From the sequence record MT764206.1: 64,000 nt of DNA; one strand, 5' to 3'. The translations under genes and the position numbers were made by a program. The notes under the pieces are model-generated. The model did not search any database, was not told where the DNA came from, and saw nothing but the letters and a program-made list of their open reading frames with translations. This stretch comes from Escherichia phage JEP6. This document shows positions 2,272 through 61,527 of this stretch, piece by piece; position 1 is the stretch's first letter, and the number at the start of each line of letters is the position of its first letter.

Positions 2272-2732
2272 TAGTAAAGGTCCTCAGAGTAAAGTTCTTT
2301 TTCACTACCACCACGTTCAATACGTACTTGTCCAGCGTAAGTTGCAATAATCATTGCTTCTTCACGTGTCCAATAATTACTATATTGGTCAATAAACCCT
2401 TGGTCATCATCACAAACTTGTTGAGTAACTAATTGAGGTTTAACTACATCTAAAACTTCTGCCATATCTTTAGAATAATGACGAGCACCTGGAATAATAA
2501 GAGTTCGTCCATCTTTTAATTTAAAACGGTTGGCTGCGCAAACAATTCGTCGTTGATACTTTTGATTTTCATCCCAATATGCAGTCTGCCAACAGATTTC
2601 AGGAACTTCTTTCAGAATATCTTCTTCTGTGCATTTATAACCATGCGCTTTAAATTTTTCAACAAGACTTTCTGGAGTTTCACGAGATAAAGGAACATTC
2701 AGCATTTTTAAACGATTAATAAATGGATTCAT
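2271..2732 (-). CDS. hypothetical early protein
   Basis: 153 aa ORF, 4-nt overlap with upstream gene. Confidence 0.5.
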
Positions 2733-3058
2733 TTAAACCATCCTTTAATACGTTGCCACAAAGTTTTCTGTTGAGCTTTGTTAACGCCAATTGAGCGAAT
2801 AACCGGTTGAGATTCCTGGAATTCTTTATAATCAGCAAGGTAAATTTCGTAAGCTGCATCTGTAAAAGAACTTATCGCTGCCATGAAATTATTGCGAATA
2901 CCTACTGGAGCATCTTTACTTTCACGAATAATCATGTATTTACCAGTCTTAATCTTTACGATAGTTCCAAGATAAGCTCCATGATACCAGATGTCCCAAC
3001 CCTCTTGAGTAGGTTCTGCACAACGACGAAGTTCATTGACAATTTCTAACTTGTTCAT
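2729..3058 (-). CDS. hypothetical early protein (motA-adjacent)
   Basis: 109 aa ORF. Confidence 0.5.
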
Positions 3059-3068
3059 TATTTATTCC

Positions 3069-3704
3069 TCACAGTTCAGATGCTACAGTGATTACGGCTT
3101 CAATGTTTTCTGCCGAGCGTTTAATGTCAAGATACACATTACCGTTTTTAGCGATTTTACATGACATTCCGATATCAGTAAATTTCTGAATATGATGTTC
3201 CATCATTTTGTATCCAAAAATTCGCATATTTCCGTTGTTGTTAATTTCAAAATTACGAATTCCGTGAGTGCGTTTTTCTAAAATAGCAAGATAGTTACTG
3301 CGGTAAGTTTCAACCTTTTTAAGAACAAATCCATTTTCATCTAACAGTTTTAACATGAAGTCTTTATCTTCTTCCATATCAGAAGTAATCTCGCGAGCTT
3401 TACGAGTTGCTCGTTTTTTCAGCAGTTCAGGAGCATTTTCCTGTGCATATAAAGTTGCTGCATTTGAAATAATATCCTGAGCTTCACCAGTAATGATTAA
3501 TCCATCACCAGATTTCTCCACCAGGCCTTTTTTAATCAATACCCCAATATTACTATTAACTACTGCGTTACCTAAATCTGGATGCACCTCACGAACTTCT
3601 GCGGCTGTAATGAAATCTTTCTTAGCAATGGTAATTAAAATCGCAGCAGTTTTTTCATTCAGAACATCGTTAGAAGCTTTGATGATGTAAGTTACTTTAG
3701 ACAT
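3069..3704 (-). CDS. motA: middle-transcription activator MotA
   Basis: 211 aa, MSKVTYIIKASNDVLNEKTAAILITIAKKDF... matches T4 MotA. Confidence 0.85.
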   Translation of the reverse strand: MSKVTYIIKASNDVLNEKTAAILITIAKKDFITAAEVREVHPDLGNAVVNSNIGVLIKKGLVEKSGDGLIITGEAQDIISNAATLYAQENAPELLKKRATRKAREITSDMEEDKDFMLKLLDENGFVLKKVETYRSNYLAILEKRTHGIRNFEINNNGNMRIFGYKMMEHHIQKFTDIGMSCKIAKNGNVYLDIKRSAENIEAVITVASEL

Positions 3705-9455: not shown

Positions 9456-11633
9456 TTAGGCCGCAAGGGCCTTCATAGTTTTAGCGATTTGGGAAACTTC
9501 ATCATCACTTAAAGAGTTGCGATAACCGATGAAGTCGGAAACAATACGGAATTTCTTGGTAAACTCAGCAACCATTTTATCACTGTTTTTTGAAGCATTA
9601 TTTGATAATACATCAAAAAGATTAGTTACTGTCCAGATGTCATGACCGATGGTATCTTTTCCACCGTTGAAATATACACCCTGTAATGAACTAACCATAT
9701 TAGCGAGTCGTGTATATTCTTCAGAAACTTCATCTACACTGAAGTACTTCATCATAAAATCTAGCTCAGGATACTTGATAATTTTATCAATATATCGTTT
9801 AGCTGAACTTGAATAACCTACATACTTATCATAATCTACATCATCAAAAGCATCTACATATAAATCACGCAGAGTTTCAAAAATACATTGGCACTGACCG
9901 AGTTCTTTTACCTTTTTCTGTAAAAGCGGACGAATAACATAAAATTCATTAATGCCAATAAGATTAGCCATACGAATCAAAATATTCATAGATGGATGAC
10001 AAAGCGATGTAGTACCATCCATAGAGAAAATATCAGAACGATGCATATACGCTACATAACCAGTAATTTCATCTGCTTCTGACGTAAGTGTAAACAGTTC
10101 CTCTTTTTCCCAGCGCCCATCTTTAATTTCAAACTTAAATGCTGTAGCAGCTTTAGGACGAGGAGCTTTACTTTTTACTGCCTTTGGAATATAACTTTTA
10201 ACTAAAGCTTCAATTTCTGACAAATAATGAATGTTAACTTCATCATTTTCAAACATTGCCATAATATCAGGGAGTAAATCAATCTGTGATTCTACTTCCG
10301 GATTAATAAACAGAAGACGTTCGTTATGATGAATATTCAGAGTGTTATTAAATTCACTATCATCTAATGCACGTGCTAATCCACGAACAATATTAACACG
10401 ATTTTTAATATTATCAATAACGACATTAATTTTTGTTGTATTAATACCAAACAGACGATAACTTGATGCGACGGCTGAAGTTTCATGACTTTGCTTAATG
10501 CGTTTCAGTCGAGGGTCAAGATTTACTTCATACACAACCCCTGCATTGCATAACTTACTGTCAGGTTCAAACATGCTCTGCATCTTTTTATATGACAGAT
10601 TTTTAGTCGTGAATTTGACTGAATTACTAATCATATAATCTCGAGCAGAATACCCCATCTTCATCAATTCACGGTATGTGTGACGAGGAGATGTAGATTC
10701 TTTAAATCGTTTTACATCTTCATTAAATGCTTTCTCACTAAGCTCTTTAACACGCTCAATAATATTTTTACGGGTACGATCATCTAGTGAAAGAGCTTCA
10801 CGTGATGGAGCAATATCAAGTGAACCCATTGGAAACTTAATGTAATTCACTTCATTGCGAATGCTTAACCAGTTACGGTCTCTAATAACACCATCGATAG
10901 GATAAACGATACCGCCGTAGATAGCATACAATCCACCACGATCTGGCCAGTATCTTTCTGGATTTACGCCGTAATAATCATCAAAATCCGGAAAATAATC
11001 AATTTCGCGGTCAAGACCATTAATGATAGCCAAATCTTTGAATGGTCGCATGATATAAGAAACTTCATAAGCAAAGTTTCTAAAGTCTTTTTCTTCAACT
11101 GGAACTACGATTTCAATACCAGTTTTATCGTCTGGACCCATTTCTTTCACGAATGTAGGTTTAATTTGTGGACCATCGCCATCCATGTAAGCTACATAAC
11201 CACGAATTTCACCTTTATGATACGAAGTAATACTAAATGTATCAGTATAACTAAACGGAGATTTAGAACCTAAACCAAATCCGCCAATGAAATCGTTAGA
11301 TTCAGCTTTAGATGAACTGAAGTATGAATTATACAACCCAGGAGAATTATCATCACCCTGAATATCAAAATCACTCATACCCGGACCAAAATCTCGACAA
11401 ACAAATCGTGGGTCTAAACGTCCTGGAACTTGTATGATAAATTTTTCAGGATTTCCATTGAGAGCATGGGCATCAATCATGTTAGTAATCAATTCACGGA
11501 CTACTGCGCGAATCTTGTTTGTATACAAATCAGATGATAGAATTTTAAATACTTTAGGAGATGCTGTGATGCTAAATGCTTTTGATTTAGAACCATTACC
11601 AAGAATTGTTTCTTTTTCAGTGGTGATAATCAT
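9456..11633 (-). CDS. rIIA: rIIA protein
   Basis: 725 aa, same length as T4 rIIA. Confidence 0.85.
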
Positions 11634-55376: not shown

Positions 55377-55586
55377 TTAATTTCGCAATTTATTAAGTTC
55401 TTCATAATCAATCCAGGATTCTAGTCCTGATGGCAAATCAGATTCAATTTCCCAAAGAAGCTCTTCAATTTTCTGAAGACGTTCTAATTCTTCAGCTGGA
55501 ATAGTAACCATTGATGGAGCTCTTGATACGCTAATATCGTAAATCATATTTACCCCAGTTTGACCATACAATCGCCATATTTCCAT
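55377..55586 (-). CDS. hypothetical protein
   Basis: 69 aa. Confidence 0.45.
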   Translation of the reverse strand: MEIWRLYGQTGVNMIYDISVSRAPSMVTIPAEELERLQKIEELLWEIESDLPSGLESWIDYEELNKLRN

Positions 55587-55765
55587 TTAGAAATAGACTT
55601 TTCACCATTAGAATAATAAACTTCGAGTTTAGCACGGCCATTTTTAATTTGAATAACCTTTGCTGTCATCAAAGTTCCATACCCATAATAAACTGCAACC
55701 TCATCACCTACATATACCGCGCTTCCGCGGTAGTCATGGATATAATCAGTTCCTTCGAGCATCAT
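55550..55765 (-). CDS. hypothetical protein
   Basis: 71 aa. Confidence 0.45.
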   Translation of the reverse strand: MMLEGTDYIHDYRGSAVYVGDEVAVYYGYGTLMTAKVIQIKNGRAKLEVYYSNGEKSISKWKYGDCMVKLG

Positions 55766-56026: not shown

Positions 56027-56317
56027 TTATTCCTTAATTCCTAGTACTTGTTTAAAAGTCTCGTCGTAATCAAGACTTTGACCTGTTTGTTCTTTATGTT
56101 TGTATATAATATCACTTACTTCTGATAGCATATTTTTATATGAACGAGTTAAAGCAGATTTAAGCACGCTGTATCTATCAGGAAATTTACCATGTTCATT
56201 ATAATAAGCTATTGCTAATTCACGGACTGCCTTTTCAGCAGTCTCCATATATTCTTTACGCTTGGTCATTTTCTTCTCGGTTAAATCGGTGTTTGCAATG
56301 ACGACATTTATATTCAA
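56027..56317 (-). CDS. hypothetical protein
   Basis: 96 aa; start may be internal Met. Confidence 0.45.
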
Positions 56318-56573
56318 GCTCTGGTTTACGCCAGTTAATCAATTGGACCTGTTCAGTACCACATTTTGGGCAATTCGGAACATTCTTAGAAGCCCTTTCG
56401 CGGCGTTCAACCATAACCATAATGGCATCCCAAGCAGGAGGTTTAAAGTCTAGATCGTCACAGCCATGAATCTTTCCACGCATTTCCAAATCGTCTTCTT
56501 CACCAGCCATAATAATTTTAATTAGACTAGAATTACTTGAAGCTGCAATGTCTTCTAATAGACGCTTTTTCAT
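56256..56573 (-). CDS. zinc-ribbon protein
   Basis: 105 aa; CPKCGTEQ...CRHCKH. Confidence 0.5.
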
Positions 56574-57499
56574 TTCAATACCTCAATAGCATTGCGTAAA
56601 CCATTTGCTTTGGCGGTTAAAGCCTTAAGAACTTTAGTATGCTCTTCAATTTGTTTTTCAACTTCAATCAAACGAGCATTGAGATATTCGCGTTCTTCAC
56701 TCAGATTATCAGCCTTTTCTGCTTTAGGTTCTTTTACAACTTGCTTATATGTATTAGGGTTCTTCAGTTTAATTAGAATGCGTGAACTGTACAGCATTGA
56801 ACCATTATCTTCGGTTTCGTCATACATTTCCACTACGTCCATCATCTCCACCATCGTGCAGAGTTTATAAGACAACGAACGAATAATTTTGTTGTGCTTA
56901 TTAATTTCTCTAGCTGTCATGGTGCCGAGATTACGTGAGTAATAATAAGGAACCTGGATATTAATTAATACTGATGAACCACCTGGCTTGTGTGTTACTT
57001 CATCAGCAATAACCCAATCCTTAACATGAACTGTATTTGTACGGTCATCGCCCGCGGTAAATAGTTTACGAGCATGCTTAAAAAGCATATTCACTTGGTC
57101 ATTGAATTGACAAGCGAATTTATCAGCAAATTTAGTTTCGGGAATGGTAGATAACCAATCAGCCAAATGGGTCTTTTTAACATCGTTAACAATAGTAAAT
57201 TCAACCAAATCGGTTATAGATGTCTCAGATTTAATGAAGCTCGGCTTCATAAAGTTTTTAATGTTATCACTAGCTACAGTAGAAGATAACAGACGAGAAC
57301 GTTTAAACCATTGAAGCAAATTGCCTAACGAATGTGAATACGCATTTTGTGTATCTTTACAAATATGGTTTTCCCATCCAATATAGTCTAAAAAATCACG
57401 AAGAATATTATTGATTACTGCTCTGTGTCCTATCTGATAATTACGATGTTTAGTAATAAGACTGTCAAAATAATCAATATAATGTTTACGAGTTTTCAT
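56570..57499 (-). CDS. paralog-array protein 1 (C-terminal coiled coil)
   Basis: 309 aa; shares KQxLxxAS(R/K)LxxGD-type core and heptad C-terminus with next three ORFs. Confidence 0.6.
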   Translation of the reverse strand: MKTRKHYIDYFDSLITKHRNYQIGHRAVINNILRDFLDYIGWENHICKDTQNAYSHSLGNLLQWFKRSRLLSSTVASDNIKNFMKPSFIKSETSITDLVEFTIVNDVKKTHLADWLSTIPETKFADKFACQFNDQVNMLFKHARKLFTAGDDRTNTVHVKDWVIADEVTHKPGGSSVLINIQVPYYYSRNLGTMTAREINKHNKIIRSLSYKLCTMVEMMDVVEMYDETEDNGSMLYSSRILIKLKNPNTYKQVVKEPKAEKADNLSEEREYLNARLIEVEKQIEEHTKVLKALTAKANGLRNAIEVLK

Positions 57500-57551
57500 G
57501 TTCTTCTCACTTGGTTAATGATTTATACTCCGAGCCATCCTTGGCTTTAAA

Positions 57552-58554
57552 TTACTTAATTAACTGTAAAGCTTGTTCCAGACGATCAAGACGATTAACA
57601 GATTCTTCCCAAATCCTTTTAGCCTGCTCATATTCTTTCTGCGCTTTATTAGAAATTTCTAGAACTTCTTTATAAGCTTTTTCTAGTGCAATAACTTCTG
57701 GACGAATTTCTATCGGTTCAGGTGAATCATCAAGACATTCCATTAGTTCCTCAAGGGTAGTTTCTTCTTTAGGAGTATTCACAATTTCATCACATTTTTG
57801 TTGGTAAATTTCTTTATCAGTTAGTGAATAAGCACATTTCACTTCACGAAGGCTAATTACGAGTTTATATCCTTCCCAGCCGCATATATTCTTAAAAGGA
57901 TATGTATGAATACTTTTTACAGTTTCCATACAGCCCAAAGCCGCCTCTAATTGATGAGTTATAGTGCTAGCAATTGAGAAAAATTTATTAATGTTCTTTT
58001 GGTTAGCTTCTGGTGTAAAAAATCTGTAATTAATAAAAATAGCTACTTTGTTTTTATCAAGCTCATATTCTTCTGCTATAATCATATCATCAGCTAAGGG
58101 ATGAATTTGACGATAATCGCCATAACATAATTTAGAAGCTGATTTTAGAATTTGCTTCGTAAAACTCCTAAATTCACTAACCCAACGACGAGTAAAAATA
58201 TTCTCAGGGTCTTCTTTAGTATTAAGATGATAAGTATTAACATCACCGAACCAATTATATCCTACTACATCTTTGGTTCGTTTAATTTCTTTCCCAAAAT
58301 TACCAAGAATATCCCGATTAACCAAATATGAAAGAAGACGAGACTCTTTAAAGGTTTTCTTGATAAGATCTTTATCTACACGGCTAGAAATTTTACGAAT
58401 TTCATGAATAAATTTAGTAGAAGAAACAATACTTGCATCAACACTATTGAGCCATTGATTGATAATAGAAAGAACGCTATTTTGGCCAAACATCGGTATA
58501 GCTTTATCATCAATAACGCTATTGAATGATTTGATATATTCGTTACGAGTCATA
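57552..58554 (-). CDS. paralog-array protein 2
   Basis: Start at MTRNEYIK (SD GAGGAG), about 334 aa; motif FTKQILKSASKLCYGDY. Confidence 0.6.
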
Positions 58555-58580
58555 ATAATCTCCTCAGTAGAAAGTAAAAA

Positions 58581-58610
58581 CATTATACCACATCCTTGTG
58601 GCAAAGTAAA
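58581..58610 (-). promoter_or_regulatory. early promoter (GTTTAC / TGGTATAAT)
   Basis: Palindromic spacer CCACAAGGATGTGG. Confidence 0.55.
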
Positions 58611-59633
58611 CTAGTTCAGTGCATTTAGTGCATTGTTCAGTTTAGAACGTTGCTTTGTCAGATTTTGAACCCTTGACTGAGCTTGTTTTAACACCTTTTC
58701 AGCTTCTAACACTTCATTGGTCGCTTTAACGAGTTCATCATCTACTGCCTTAAGAGACTTCTCAATCGCGTCAGCGTGCCATTTTTCTACAGGTTTAAAA
58801 TTTGAATTTTCAGTAGGAAGAAAACTCACTTTATTAAGTTTACATGCATCTATATTGCTTGAGCTATACATCCAAAATTTAGGATCGTTTGATGAGTAAT
58901 TAGATGAATTTAAGGTATTTTGCACTTCCTGCTTTTTCTCTTGAACAATTTCATCCTTTCTCAAAAATTCATATTTAAATGAAACGATCATATCAAGTTC
59001 ATATGTTGTTGTATGTTCCCAATTTCGCTCAAAATGAGGTAAAATCTTAGATTGAACAGCAGCAACAACATCCATATACTTAAATGCTTCTGTCAGCTGT
59101 GATTTAAGACATTCACAAATTGAAAGAGAATTTTTTGTATTAGGTTTAAAGCTAATTCGTGCAGTTCTATTATTTTCTTTTAATGGTCTTACTTCCATCT
59201 GAAGAGTATAACCATCAAATTTCAGGTTCTTTAAGTTAATGTCAGAACCTTTTAATCGACTCGCAATTGATAAAATTTGTTTTAATTGTTTACGGAATAG
59301 AGCAATAAATCTCCATTCAAGACGATAATGATTTGGATTAAAAAATCCAGTTGATAGATCAGTCTTACTTTGACCAACGCCTCGAACAAATAGAGGATTT
59401 TTATAATCAATAGTTTTACAGAAATCGGTGAGCTGCTCGCGAGCAGTCATTTGTGTAATATACCCTGCTTTACTAAAATTACGCACCCATTCACTGCTAT
59501 TCGTATACTTAAAGTGATGAATAACACGATTAACTTTATCAGGGTCTAAATTATTTTCACACAAAAATGTCATAACATCACGAGTATAACTGGCATTACG
59601 AACCATATCTTCAATTTGAGAACGAGTTTTCAT
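58611..59633 (-). CDS. paralog-array protein 3
   Basis: 340 aa; motif FRKQLKQILSIASRLKGSD. Confidence 0.6.
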   Translation of the reverse strand: MKTRSQIEDMVRNASYTRDVMTFLCENNLDPDKVNRVIHHFKYTNSSEWVRNFSKAGYITQMTAREQLTDFCKTIDYKNPLFVRGVGQSKTDLSTGFFNPNHYRLEWRFIALFRKQLKQILSIASRLKGSDINLKNLKFDGYTLQMEVRPLKENNRTARISFKPNTKNSLSICECLKSQLTEAFKYMDVVAAVQSKILPHFERNWEHTTTYELDMIVSFKYEFLRKDEIVQEKKQEVQNTLNSSNYSSNDPKFWMYSSSNIDACKLNKVSFLPTENSNFKPVEKWHADAIEKSLKAVDDELVKATNEVLEAEKVLKQAQSRVQNLTKQRSKLNNALNALN

Positions 59634-59641
59634 GGTGTTCC

Positions 59642-60565
59642 TTAAGATTTAAGTAAATCAACAATTTTAATTAATTTTTCACGTTCAGATTTAGCTTTAC
59701 TACTCAATCCAGATAGTCTGAAAATTTCATCGTCATATTGTTGAATAGAAATATTCAGCTCTTCAATTTGCTTATTAAAATAATCAATTTGTTCAGAATG
59801 CTTTTCATTACTGCGAACTGGTACAGGTTTTGTAGGCAATTTAGATGAACTGGATTCATCTGGGCGATAAATTAAAATGCAATTTGAACCAATCGGACAT
59901 TTAGCACCAGACACATATTCTAATGTTCCGGCTTCTTTTAAAACTTCAAAGGCTAAACAGAGATGATGCCCCATATTAACATAATCTGTAGAGCGAGCTC
60001 TGACGTAATAATCATCTCCACGAGTGCTAAATTTAAAGCATTTAAGGTCTTCTGTATTATTGGTCTTAAAAATCATTTGTTTATCTAGACCTTTAGCTAA
60101 TCGAGCACCTAATGCTAATAATCGTCGTTGATTTTCCCACAAATCCGCAATCATTTGGTCGAATGATAATTTTGGCATTAGTCGACCATAAAGGTCATAT
60201 CCTTTATTATAATTGCGAAGAATTTCACTCGCATTAATACGAGACAATGCTCCAATTTTATTAAGGGCTTTCATGATGCGATTAGATAAAAGCATTCCAG
60301 ACCCGTTTGTTCGTTGTAAATGTTTTTCTAATCCAAATCCAATATCAACTTTAAACTTATCTAAAATTTCGGCGTGAACATCTTTATCGATAACATTTAA
60401 ATTTAGTACTGGGTTAAATTTATGAAAAAATTTATCTGACTCGTCGCGTTGAAGTACAGTCCATTCATTTGATTTTTTATTAACTAAAGATTTAATTACT
60501 GCATTGACATTATTAATTGCTACTGACATATTTTCCTCACTCAATTTCAATTTTACTAAATACAC
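59642..60565 (-). CDS. paralog-array protein 4
   Basis: 307 aa; motif RRLLALGARLAKGLD. Confidence 0.6.
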   Translation of the reverse strand: MYLVKLKLSEENMSVAINNVNAVIKSLVNKKSNEWTVLQRDESDKFFHKFNPVLNLNVIDKDVHAEILDKFKVDIGFGLEKHLQRTNGSGMLLSNRIMKALNKIGALSRINASEILRNYNKGYDLYGRLMPKLSFDQMIADLWENQRRLLALGARLAKGLDKQMIFKTNNTEDLKCFKFSTRGDDYYVRARSTDYVNMGHHLCLAFEVLKEAGTLEYVSGAKCPIGSNCILIYRPDESSSSKLPTKPVPVRSNEKHSEQIDYFNKQIEELNISIQQYDDEIFRLSGLSSKAKSEREKLIKIVDLLKS

Positions 60566-60944
60566 AGAATATGATGGAAAAGACTATATAAGCACCGCAT
60601 ACAGATTGAACTAATACCATTCCAAAGAACCAAACAATATTATCAAACAATGTCTGTTTTACGTCGAAAGGACGTAAACTTACAGTAATATTATCACCTT
60701 TTTCTATTGAAGAATACATCTCTGGGGAAATATATTCACTAAATCTATAACCGTCTTTGAGTTCATATATAGCAATAAACGATAAACTAGACCCCTTTCC
60801 TTGTGTTCCTGTAATAGTATTAACTACAGTAACATCATAATCTTTATAATGCATATAATCATTAATTGCGTAATAACCATATGCAATTACTATACATAAA
60901 CAACATATCAATAAATTCAATCTTTTAATTATCAACTGTTTCAT
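60537..60944 (-). CDS. membrane protein
   Basis: 135 aa, N- and C-terminal TM helices. Confidence 0.5.
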   Translation of the reverse strand: MKQLIIKRLNLLICCLCIVIAYGYYAINDYMHYKDYDVTVVNTITGTQGKGSSLSFIAIYELKDGYRFSEYISPEMYSSIEKGDNITVSLRPFDVKQTLFDNIVWFFGMVLVQSVCGAYIVFSIIFCVFSKIEIE

Positions 60945-60999: not shown

Positions 61000-61527
61000 T
61001 TATGCGAGTACCGTCTTTAACCGTTCTTCAAACTTCCGAAGAGTATTCTGGCGTTCAGCTCTTTGCTTTTTGTAAGTTTCAATACGCTCTGAAATGAGAG
61101 TGTATCGTTCATTTACTGATTCTTTCATAAAATCAGGAATTTCACGAGAAGCTTTAATCTCGTCAAATTTATCAATAACAGCTTGCTCTTCAGCAATTAA
61201 GTTATCATACATCAAAATATCTTTCTTGATGAACTCAATATCTTCTTGAGTTACACGAGATAATTTAGATGCTTTATCCTTTTTGTACTGTTCGTTAGTA
61301 TCACGAGACCAGTGTAATGTACGATTTTTATTCGTATTCTTGTAAATTTCTACAATACCGATCTCATCGATAATAACGATCCAATTCCAACGGGATTTGT
61401 AAATTTGTCCTCCATCAACAGTGATTTCACCTCCGATTGAGATGTCATTAAAGAACTTGCTTTGTGCTTCTGATTTAAATTTACCATCGTTGTAATTTAC
61501 CAGGTTGAAAATATCTTTAGCGTTCAT
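61000..61527 (-). CDS. hypothetical protein
   Basis: 175 aa, SD GGAGGAA. Confidence 0.5.
   Translation of the reverse strand: MNAKDIFNLVNYNDGKFKSEAQSKFFNDISIGGEITVDGGQIYKSRWNWIVIIDEIGIVEIYKNTNKNRTLHWSRDTNEQYKKDKASKLSRVTQEDIEFIKKDILMYDNLIAEEQAVIDKFDEIKASREIPDFMKESVNERYTLISERIETYKKQRAERQNTLRKFEERLKTVLA

Follow-up and report, generated by a model that had tools for sequence, protein, structure and literature searches.

The nrdC.3–nrdC.6 array of T4-like phages: four deeply diverged tandem paralogs of a family that probably counters host defences

The genes nrdC.3, nrdC.4, nrdC.5 and nrdC.6 lie one behind the other on the minus strand of a 64,000-nucleotide stretch of Escherichia phage JEP6 DNA (sequence record MT764206.1; this whole stretch is called the window below). 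They are deeply diverged tandem paralogs of a single family found in T4-like phages (Straboviridae) only. What is new here is that all four fall into one superfamily, specific to T4-like phages, with a defined architecture, and that together they make up a dynamic, recombining array. One of them is the ortholog of T4 nrdC.5, an early gene that overcomes the defence protein Dsr1 of E. coli ECOR17 (PMC9391042). We think it reasonably probable that the family consists of coiled-coil, non-enzymatic early proteins that bind host defence proteins and block them.

The window belongs to a Tequatrovirus (T4-like phage). Its array region (5 kb) is 97.4% identical to that of Salmonella phage SG1 and 92–95% identical to hundreds of T-even genomes, and the genes for endonuclease VII and NrdC lie a short way downstream. 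Comparison with the annotated T4 record mapped the four genes onto T4 nrdC.3, nrdC.4, nrdC.5 and nrdC.6; all were found as minus-strand open reading frames (ORFs), the four consecutive leftward genes that a preliminary description of the window had reported. The nrdC.5 ortholog (58611–59633, 340 aa) is 91% identical to T4 NrdC.5 over 340 of 340 residues, has the same length and, like its T4 counterpart, is flanked by nrdC.6 and nrdC.4. The nrdC.4 ortholog (57552–58553, 333 aa) is 93% identical to T4 NrdC.4. At 56570–57499, nrdC.3 (309 aa) is a divergent allele, with 62% identity to T4 NrdC.3 versus 74–77% to the Mosigvirus copies. The most divergent member of the array, nrdC.6 (59642–60529, 295 aa), is 94% identical to T4 NrdC.6 over 259 aa and has a different C-terminal end.

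Common descent of the four genes

Outside the blocks that they share, the four proteins are only 12–27% identical, in agreement with the earlier statement that the rest of their sequence is highly diverged. Direct comparison readily relates NrdC.3 to NrdC.4 (BLASTP E = 1.7e-8, 26.5% identity over 226 aa; Smith–Waterman z = 11.9) and weakly relates NrdC.4 to NrdC.5 (BLASTP E = 0.003; z = 5.9). By BLASTP and by Smith–Waterman alignment with shuffles, NrdC.6 matches none of the other three and NrdC.3 does not match NrdC.5. A first round of hhalign comparisons with shallow alignments supported the NrdC.3–NrdC.4 pair alone (97%). Family hidden Markov models (HMMs) run against the 144 ORFs of the window connected only NrdC.4 to NrdC.3; for the NrdC.5 model, NrdC.4 was the best non-self match, yet at E = 0.06.

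A comparative set was then assembled by fetching the region, via the conserved neighbour nrdC.10, from eight T4-like genera, T4 and the window, and all 306 of its ORFs of at least 100 aa were searched with hmmsearch in jackhmmer-style iterations. Seeds from NrdC.4, NrdC.5 and NrdC.6 separately reached the same 19 of the 306 ORFs, which code for 275–356 aa, with zero off-targets. All 19 sit between nrdC.2 and nrdC.7, nrdC.8 or nrdC.10. Since coiled coils can cause profile drift, the search was redone without the C-terminal tail: the trimmed NrdC.4 seed brought back 18 of the 19 members, among them NrdC.5 (7e-7) and NrdC.6 (1.6e-5), again with no off-target.

The relationship is also seen through a single-copy family of Kanagawavirus, Jiaodavirus, Moonvirus, Tegunavirus and Klebsiella phages, referred to here as the hub family. 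When the alignments were enriched in distant members, hhalign probabilities were 94.1% for NrdC.3/NrdC.4 against NrdC.5, and 98.6, 99.1 and 98.7% for NrdC.3/NrdC.4, NrdC.5 and NrdC.6, respectively, against the hub family. After deletion of the last 75 residues the corresponding values were 87.9, 98.5, 97.4 and 97.0%, and four unrelated proteins of the window used as controls remained below 2%.

It could be argued that only nrdC.3 and nrdC.4 are paralogous, that nrdC.5 and especially nrdC.6 are unrelated genes, alike in size, whose helical and coiled-coil architecture arose by convergence, and that the profile links are a compositional or coiled-coil artefact. Three observations tell against common descent of all four and fit such a view. 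Direct hhalign comparison of NrdC.6 with NrdC.3/NrdC.4 and with NrdC.5 is non-significant (P = 0.007–0.04). The convergence of the iterative searches depends in part on the tail, as the trimmed NrdC.5 and NrdC.6 seeds stalled at E = 0.001–0.003, just above the threshold (the best of the matches that failed it were family members), and for these stalled seeds the relationship was recovered only by the enriched profiles. In addition, PHROGs and Pfam place NrdC.5 and NrdC.6 in separate families. We nevertheless find convergence quite unlikely, given that the tail-less profiles keep their high probabilities against the hub family, and NrdC.3/NrdC.4 theirs against NrdC.5, while the controls stay below 2%, that the trimmed NrdC.4 seed finds both NrdC.5 and NrdC.6, and that the family profiles never recruited other coiled-coil ORFs of the database (nrdC.8, tail fibres). 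The proteins further share three colinear blocks, and the AlphaFold2 (AF2) models of NrdC.4 and NrdC.6 have the same order of elements and common Foldseek neighbours. Finally, each genus that has members carries them at the same place in the genome: the position from nrdC.2 to nrdC.7 or nrdC.8 holds for members in the window and in loci L001–L008 and L011–L018 of the comparative set.

Descent of the four genes from one ancestor is therefore stated with differing directness for its parts. The preliminary description had called them four divergent paralogs; this stands on direct comparison for nrdC.3 and nrdC.4 and, weakly, for nrdC.4 and nrdC.5, and on the hub profiles for all four, nrdC.6 being joined to the others by transitivity through the hub family and by structure because its direct comparisons are non-significant. 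The motifs on which that description relied are not chance matches, since profiles and iterations unite the four proteins without off-targets.

Shared blocks, C-terminal helix and predicted structure

The four strings quoted earlier as a shared central motif fall in the same columns of both an HMM-guided and a naive MAFFT alignment and correspond to the conserved core of the family. Within the genus, each family varies least in this motif block, F..(F/L)........(I/L)(L/V)...(A/G)(S/R)(R/K)L..GD.R. In NrdC.3 the aligned columns cover residues 128–153 (FACQFNDQVNMLFKHARKLFTAGDDR; 57041–57118, minus strand, as are all the segments listed here). In NrdC.4 they cover residues 124–148 (58110–58184), the region least variable within the genus, which falls within modelled helices 119–130, 132–142 and 145–148. 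Residues 109–131 of NrdC.5 (59241–59309) are the segment of lowest entropy in its family, and residues 126–150 of NrdC.6 (60080–60154) correspond to a modelled helix pair (123–146). Two further blocks are colinear with the motif: an upstream one, F.K..(R/G).(L/I)(S/T)...(E/D).(I/L)..(F/Y).K, and a C-terminal one that ends in A(L/I)..LLK. The superfamily alignment contains no fully invariant position.

Each protein ends in a helical segment with a heptad pattern, as had been proposed; in the four array proteins, and in 14 of 15 tested family members, the window with the best heptad pattern is found among the last ~60 residues. These segments are residues 268–309 of NrdC.3 (56573–56698), 285–333 of NrdC.4 (57555–57701; a single 48-residue helix, 285–332, in the AF2 model), 286–340 of NrdC.5 (58614–58778) and 244–295 of NrdC.6 (59645–59800; AF2 helices 242–271 and 276–294). 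In the best window of the NrdC.5 tail the a and d positions are 100% hydrophobic, which exceeds all 100 shuffles.

Models were available for NrdC.4 (predicted local distance difference test, pLDDT, 82.5) and NrdC.6 (pLDDT 77.3). Both show the same order of elements: a six-helix N-terminal bundle, the motif helix pair and a small alpha/beta domain made up of a beta-hairpin, a helix and a second beta-hairpin, followed by a flexible, low-confidence linker and the long, amphipathic C-terminal helix. A Foldseek search of BFVD with the NrdC.4 model gave 18 matches at E < 1e-3, of which each named one comes from a T4-like phage; they are uncharacterised proteins of ~280–375 aa, besides two ~155-residue fragments of close NrdC.4 homologs. 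One of them is NrdC.6 of phage JS10 (E = 2.4e-5, prob 1.0). The matches of the NrdC.6 model are, first, members of its own family and, next, four proteins found with the NrdC.4 model too (Acj9 E5EPQ6, fHe-Yen9-01, Acj61 E5E4A2 and Mineola). Structure prediction for these two members thus gives the same element order and shared structural neighbours.

Distribution, copy number and recombination

When profiles were searched exhaustively against 1.84 billion representative proteins, 28 clusters only were returned. Those that were assigned to the family set or checked by name all proved to be T4-like phage proteins or fragments of such proteins, and no cellular homolog was found in this search. 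Matches with at least 80% coverage occur in 547–723 phage records per array protein. The number of copies is variable, from one to four within Tequatrovirus and from one to three in other genera. Most Tequatrovirus genomes have the order nrdC.6–nrdC.5–nrdC.4–nrdC.3, Mosigvirus has nrdC.6, nrdC.5 and an nrdC.3-like gene, Dhakavirus has nrdC.6, nrdC.5 and an nrdC.4-like gene, and a single member is present in Moonvirus, Kanagawavirus, Jiaodavirus, Tegunavirus and an Acinetobacter phage. Bas43 (TadeuszReichstein) retains nrdC.3 alone, and ACG-C40 retains nrdC.6 alone together with an out-of-frame remnant. At the Aeromonas and Cronobacter loci, reached via nrdC.10, the gene order is different and no family member was found among the ORFs searched.

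Members have also been joined to each other. In Salmonella phage Manna, Manna_094 (locus 2389–3426) is an in-frame hybrid of NrdC.6 (residues 1 to ~262) and NrdC.4 (residues 251–333) with a DEI microhomology at the junction, and its product is of normal size (345 aa); nrdC.3 is the other array gene of this phage. A metagenomic protein consists of NrdC.5 fused to NrdC.3. NrdC.6 of Shigella phage Sf25 (378 aa) carries an internal tandem duplication of about residues 176–258, a segment that belongs to the alpha/beta domain and the linker. The array is thus not invariant across relatives, in which hybrids, remnants and an internal duplication are all seen.

Evolutionary rate

Among seven Tequatrovirus genomes, the ratio of non-synonymous to synonymous divergence (dN/dS) is 0.32 for nrdC.3, 0.21 for nrdC.4, 0.20 for nrdC.5 and 0.11 for nrdC.6, versus 0.007–0.054 for the core flanking genes (gp49, nrdC, nrdC.1, nrdC.8, nrdC.9 and nrdC.10) and 0.09 for gp49.2. 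The array values are 3–40 times those of the core flanking genes, and dN is 10–60 times higher. Database-wide, NrdC.10 is at least 99% identical in 452 records, while the array proteins are mostly 80–95% identical and NrdC.3 splits into two deep alleles. Variation is concentrated outside the motif helices and the tail. The array block is therefore fast-evolving and accessory, and these values show it to be under relaxed or mixed constraint. Of the rapid diversification under an arms race that had been suggested for the array, the fast evolution stands, whereas positive selection is not demonstrated, the gene-wide dN/dS being below 1.

Genes of this kind might be taken for decaying, functionless leftovers of old duplications that drift neutrally in a dispensable region. 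Some natural isolates indeed do without them, there are remnants as well as frameshifted fusions, and the dN/dS of the genes is above that of their neighbours. Yet a dN/dS of 0.11–0.32 is far under neutrality, matches of high coverage persist in the hundreds of phage records mentioned above, the promoter and ribosome-binding site (RBS) regions are nearly invariant and the motif helices and tail are strongly conserved in each family. A phenotype has moreover been demonstrated for nrdC.5 (PMC9391042). Purifying selection and this phenotype largely refute decay, which we regard as extremely unlikely.

A probable role against host defences

The preliminary description named host takeover or anti-defence as possible roles and could assign no function. 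For one member, a function can be assigned from the literature: T4 nrdC.5, supplied on a plasmid, allows a deletion mutant to plate again on Dsr1-carrying cells (Srikant, Guegler and Laub, eLife 2022, PMC9391042). This phenotype was obtained with the T4 allele, to which the NrdC.5 of the window is 91% identical; for the other members, the role is deduced from kinship.

The reading that we favour is that the proteins would be made early in infection and would act stoichiometrically, since the superfamily alignment has no invariant residue and no enzyme family is matched. Each would bind a host defence protein and thereby block its sensing or its activation, and NrdC.5 would do so with the NAD+-depleting sirtuin Dsr1. 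We infer direct binding of NrdC.5 to Dsr1 because catalytic signatures are absent and because there is a precedent in DSAD1, a small, non-enzymatic phage protein that binds and inhibits DSR2, an NAD+-depleting protein with a SIR2 domain (PMC11087589, PMC10973363, PMC10981675). DSAD1 serves here as a template by functional analogy only (PMC11087589); no sequence or fold likeness between it and the array proteins was found. NrdC.3, NrdC.4 and NrdC.6 most likely do likewise to other defence proteins or variants, using the same scaffold. The scaffold and the tail are kept, and the variation falls in the N-terminal bundle, in the alpha/beta domain and in the linker; the set would be reshuffled according to the hosts met, as members are lost, alleles are replaced or deletions fuse one member to another. 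The tetratricopeptide repeat (TPR) sensor of Dsr1 is reported to be common to Avs7 and to other effector fusions, with nuclease, kinase or NADase (2026 preprint, PMC12803255); as a speculation, these TPR-sensor relatives of Dsr1 offer a plausible set of related targets.

The array may be compared with other accessory loci of T-even phages that counter host defences. The dmd-tifA-adfA 'anti-TA (toxin–antitoxin) island' and the internal proteins IPI–IPIII resemble it in being non-essential, early or injected, variable and deleted when genome space is needed (PMC9391042). By their descriptions in the same paper, however, they are functionally distinct genes, whereas the array consists of tandem homologs that recombine together.

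Several points weigh against a counter-defence family built on one scaffold. A phenotype is on record for one of the four genes only, and kinship with an anti-defence protein does not guarantee a related role. A literature search for follow-up on nrdC.3 to nrdC.6 or for an anti-Dsr1 mechanism gave nothing beyond the 2022 eLife paper. Positive selection is not demonstrated, because gene-wide dN/dS is below 1. The architecture was seen in the models of NrdC.4 and NrdC.6, NrdC.3 and NrdC.5 sharing the colinear blocks and the heptad tail, and the Foldseek matches include no recognisable NrdC.5-like entry. The C-terminal helix probably mediates oligomerisation, a role read from the heptad pattern and the length of the helix.

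Alternatively, the array might encode host-takeover or regulatory early proteins without a role in immunity, acting for example on transcription by host or phage, on nucleotide metabolism or on the cell envelope; the effect of nrdC.5 on Dsr1 would then be indirect, through the timing or level of the trigger or through NAD+ pools. This would suit the location of the array among nucleotide-metabolism and other early genes (nrdC, nrdD, tk) and a gene-wide dN/dS below 1, and the eLife result is one of plating rescue only. It sits less well with natural isolates that dispense with two or three of the four genes, and with the outcome of family-model and PDB sequence searches, in which no enzyme or DNA-binding family was matched. 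It also leaves aside the fast evolution, allele replacement and copy-number flux of the array beside highly conserved neighbours. Such a combination is typical of host-range and counter-defence accessory genes. Lastly, nrdC.5 alone suffices for plating on a laboratory strain in which only dsr1 was cloned (PMC9391042). On balance we hold a takeover function without an immunity role to be rather unlikely.

A bolder version of the defence-blocking reading is that the family forms a modular, recombining toolkit of sensor blockers, in which scaffold and coiled coil would build dimers or hetero-oligomers and each set of variable domains would be tuned to a different TPR-sensor defence protein. The central domain might also be an exapted virion-protein fold, similar to that of tail terminators and serving as a decoy ligand; the systems for comparison are the tail terminator or tail completion proteins lambda gpU (3fz2), SPP1 gp17-like proteins, DUF3168, T5 p142 and the terminators of Mu and phage 812. 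In-frame hybrids such as the NrdC.6::NrdC.4 protein of Manna would then offer a natural way of acquiring new specificities. We offer this as a conjecture that is unlikely to hold.

Being remote paralogs of an anti-Dsr1 gene, nrdC.3, nrdC.4 and nrdC.6 are candidate counter-defence factors. Although T4 is very heavily studied, the records examined still have them as hypothetical proteins or mislabel them 'thioredoxin'; these orphan genes now become specific candidates for inexpensive tests. A conserved scaffold with its tail, set against the variable N-terminal and alpha/beta surfaces, gives a structural frame for dissecting NrdC.5. Natural variants with one, two or three copies, as well as hybrids, exist in collections such as BASEL, so that their host ranges are directly comparable. 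The gain is incremental, as all four genes were previously known and so was what one of them does, and amounts to a modest extension of known biology.

Database families and labels

The window NrdC.5 matches Pfam DUF7235 (PF23882), the family of T4 NrdC.5, with 403 bits (cut-off 30) over model positions 1–307 of 307. NrdC.3, NrdC.4 and NrdC.6 gave no match to this model at E <= 1 in the Pfam search and thus lie outside PF23882 as now defined. They differ from NrdC.5 in missing its Pfam model and in sharing 12–27% identity with it, and are remote homologs of the same architecture. In PHROGs, NrdC.3 and NrdC.4 both match phrog_1435 over the whole 334-position profile (full-length HMM matches, 1.2e-115 and 5.6e-165), while NrdC.5 and NrdC.6 go apart from them to phrog_2351 and phrog_2257; the full-length matches of the four proteins range from E = 1e-115 to 1e-165. 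According to precomputed Pfam labels, homologs of NrdC.4 carry PF26897 (NrdC.4-like) and those of NrdC.6 carry PF26899 (NrdC.6-like). The annotations of phrog_1435, phrog_2351, phrog_2257, PF26897 and PF26899 give no function for any of them, and the databases hold NrdC.5 and NrdC.6 separate from NrdC.3/NrdC.4, whereas the present analysis unites these PHROG and Pfam families in one superfamily via the single-copy hub family.

Apart from DUF7235 for NrdC.5, scans of the four proteins against Pfam, PADLOC and NCBIfam gave nothing informative. Weak matches to the XerD N-terminus, VatE, PgrA and BrxC were far under the cut-offs, fell in helical or coiled-coil segments and were rejected. The BrxC match, to the coiled coil of NrdC.4 (12.5 bits, E = 0.0065), was the sole match among the PADLOC defence-system models and is a low-complexity helix match. 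Designed helical repeats found with the N-terminal bundle in a PDB sequence search (E ~ 1e-3) were judged compositional. Many deposited T4-like genomes call nrdC.1 through nrdC.11, these four genes included, 'thioredoxin'; the label was rejected for the array proteins, which have no thioredoxin family match or fold, and it appears to have been propagated from the gene names.

Gene starts, promoter-like sites and intergenic regions

The coordinates first proposed for nrdC.3 and nrdC.5 are kept. Those for nrdC.4 (57552–58554) span 1003 nt and are out of frame; they become 57552–58553, with an ATG start preceded by GAGGAG that agrees with the nrdC.4 annotation in T4, RB9 and KRT47. A TTG start at 58604 was dropped, as the ATG with its RBS fits the annotated orthologs. 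nrdC.6 most likely starts at 60529, because the ATG there has a GAGG RBS, gives a 295-aa product and fits the annotated nrdC.6; the GTG at 60565, which had been chosen initially, is merely the longest-ORF start and was set aside, since the ATG with its RBS fits the annotated orthologs. nrdC.6 and nrdC.5 are packed tightly behind nrdC.7, with gaps of 7–8 bp, and the stop of nrdC.3 overlaps the start of nrdC.2.

A promoter had been placed before one member of the array, at 58581–58610. A promoter-like sequence is found there on the minus strand (58610–58582): TTTACT-17-TATAAT with a TG extended −10, a putative sigma-70-type site that agrees with the consensus at 10 of 12 positions. It lies in the 57-bp gap upstream of nrdC.4, overlaps a small hairpin and is nearly invariant in seven Tequatrovirus genomes. 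The nrdC.4–nrdC.3 gap (57500–57551, minus strand), as read from the sequence, contains a hairpin and a weaker TTTAAA-18-TATAAA element, a layout that resembles the nrdC.5–nrdC.4 promoter region with weaker hexamers. This gap is identical in T4 and in the window, though the NrdC.3 proteins beside it are only 62% identical (38% different), which suggests that the nrdC.3 allele was replaced like a cassette, with breakpoints at the gene borders.

Flanking genes

Just downstream of the array, nrdC.2 (56256–56573) codes for 105 aa, the C-terminal part of which has a zinc-ribbon signature and weakly matches several Zn-ribbon Pfam families. Its evolution is no slower than that of the array (dN/dS 0.22, minimum identity 65%), and in T2 the gene is broken in two. 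Because nrdC.2 comes after the last array member in almost all genera examined, it may be functionally linked to the array. On the upstream side of nrdC.6, nrdC.7 (60537–60944) encodes a predicted membrane protein with a dN/dS of 0.26; at the Mosigvirus locus there is no nrdC.7-sized gene beside the array, and in Bas43 nrdC.7 was lost together with nrdC.4 to nrdC.6. Given this rate and these losses, the fast-evolving block spans nrdC.2 to nrdC.7. Unlike these neighbours, nrdC.8 (61000–61527; 175 aa, with a charged helical C-terminus) is highly conserved (dN/dS 0.03).

Around nrdC.10, some relatives have extra genes, which show further local mosaicism. In RB9 (locus 9471–10190), nrdC.9 is separated from nrdC.10 by the gene for a putative intron-like homing endonuclease, and in T2 (locus 10568–11053) a 161-aa ORF lies beyond nrdC.10. 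At the position of T4 gene 49.3, the window has two small ORFs (69 and 71 aa) at 55377–55765. For one of them, the orthologs in MLF4 and ACG-C40 are annotated 'antitoxin from a toxin-antitoxin system', and the position may be one more slot for accessory or counter-defence genes.

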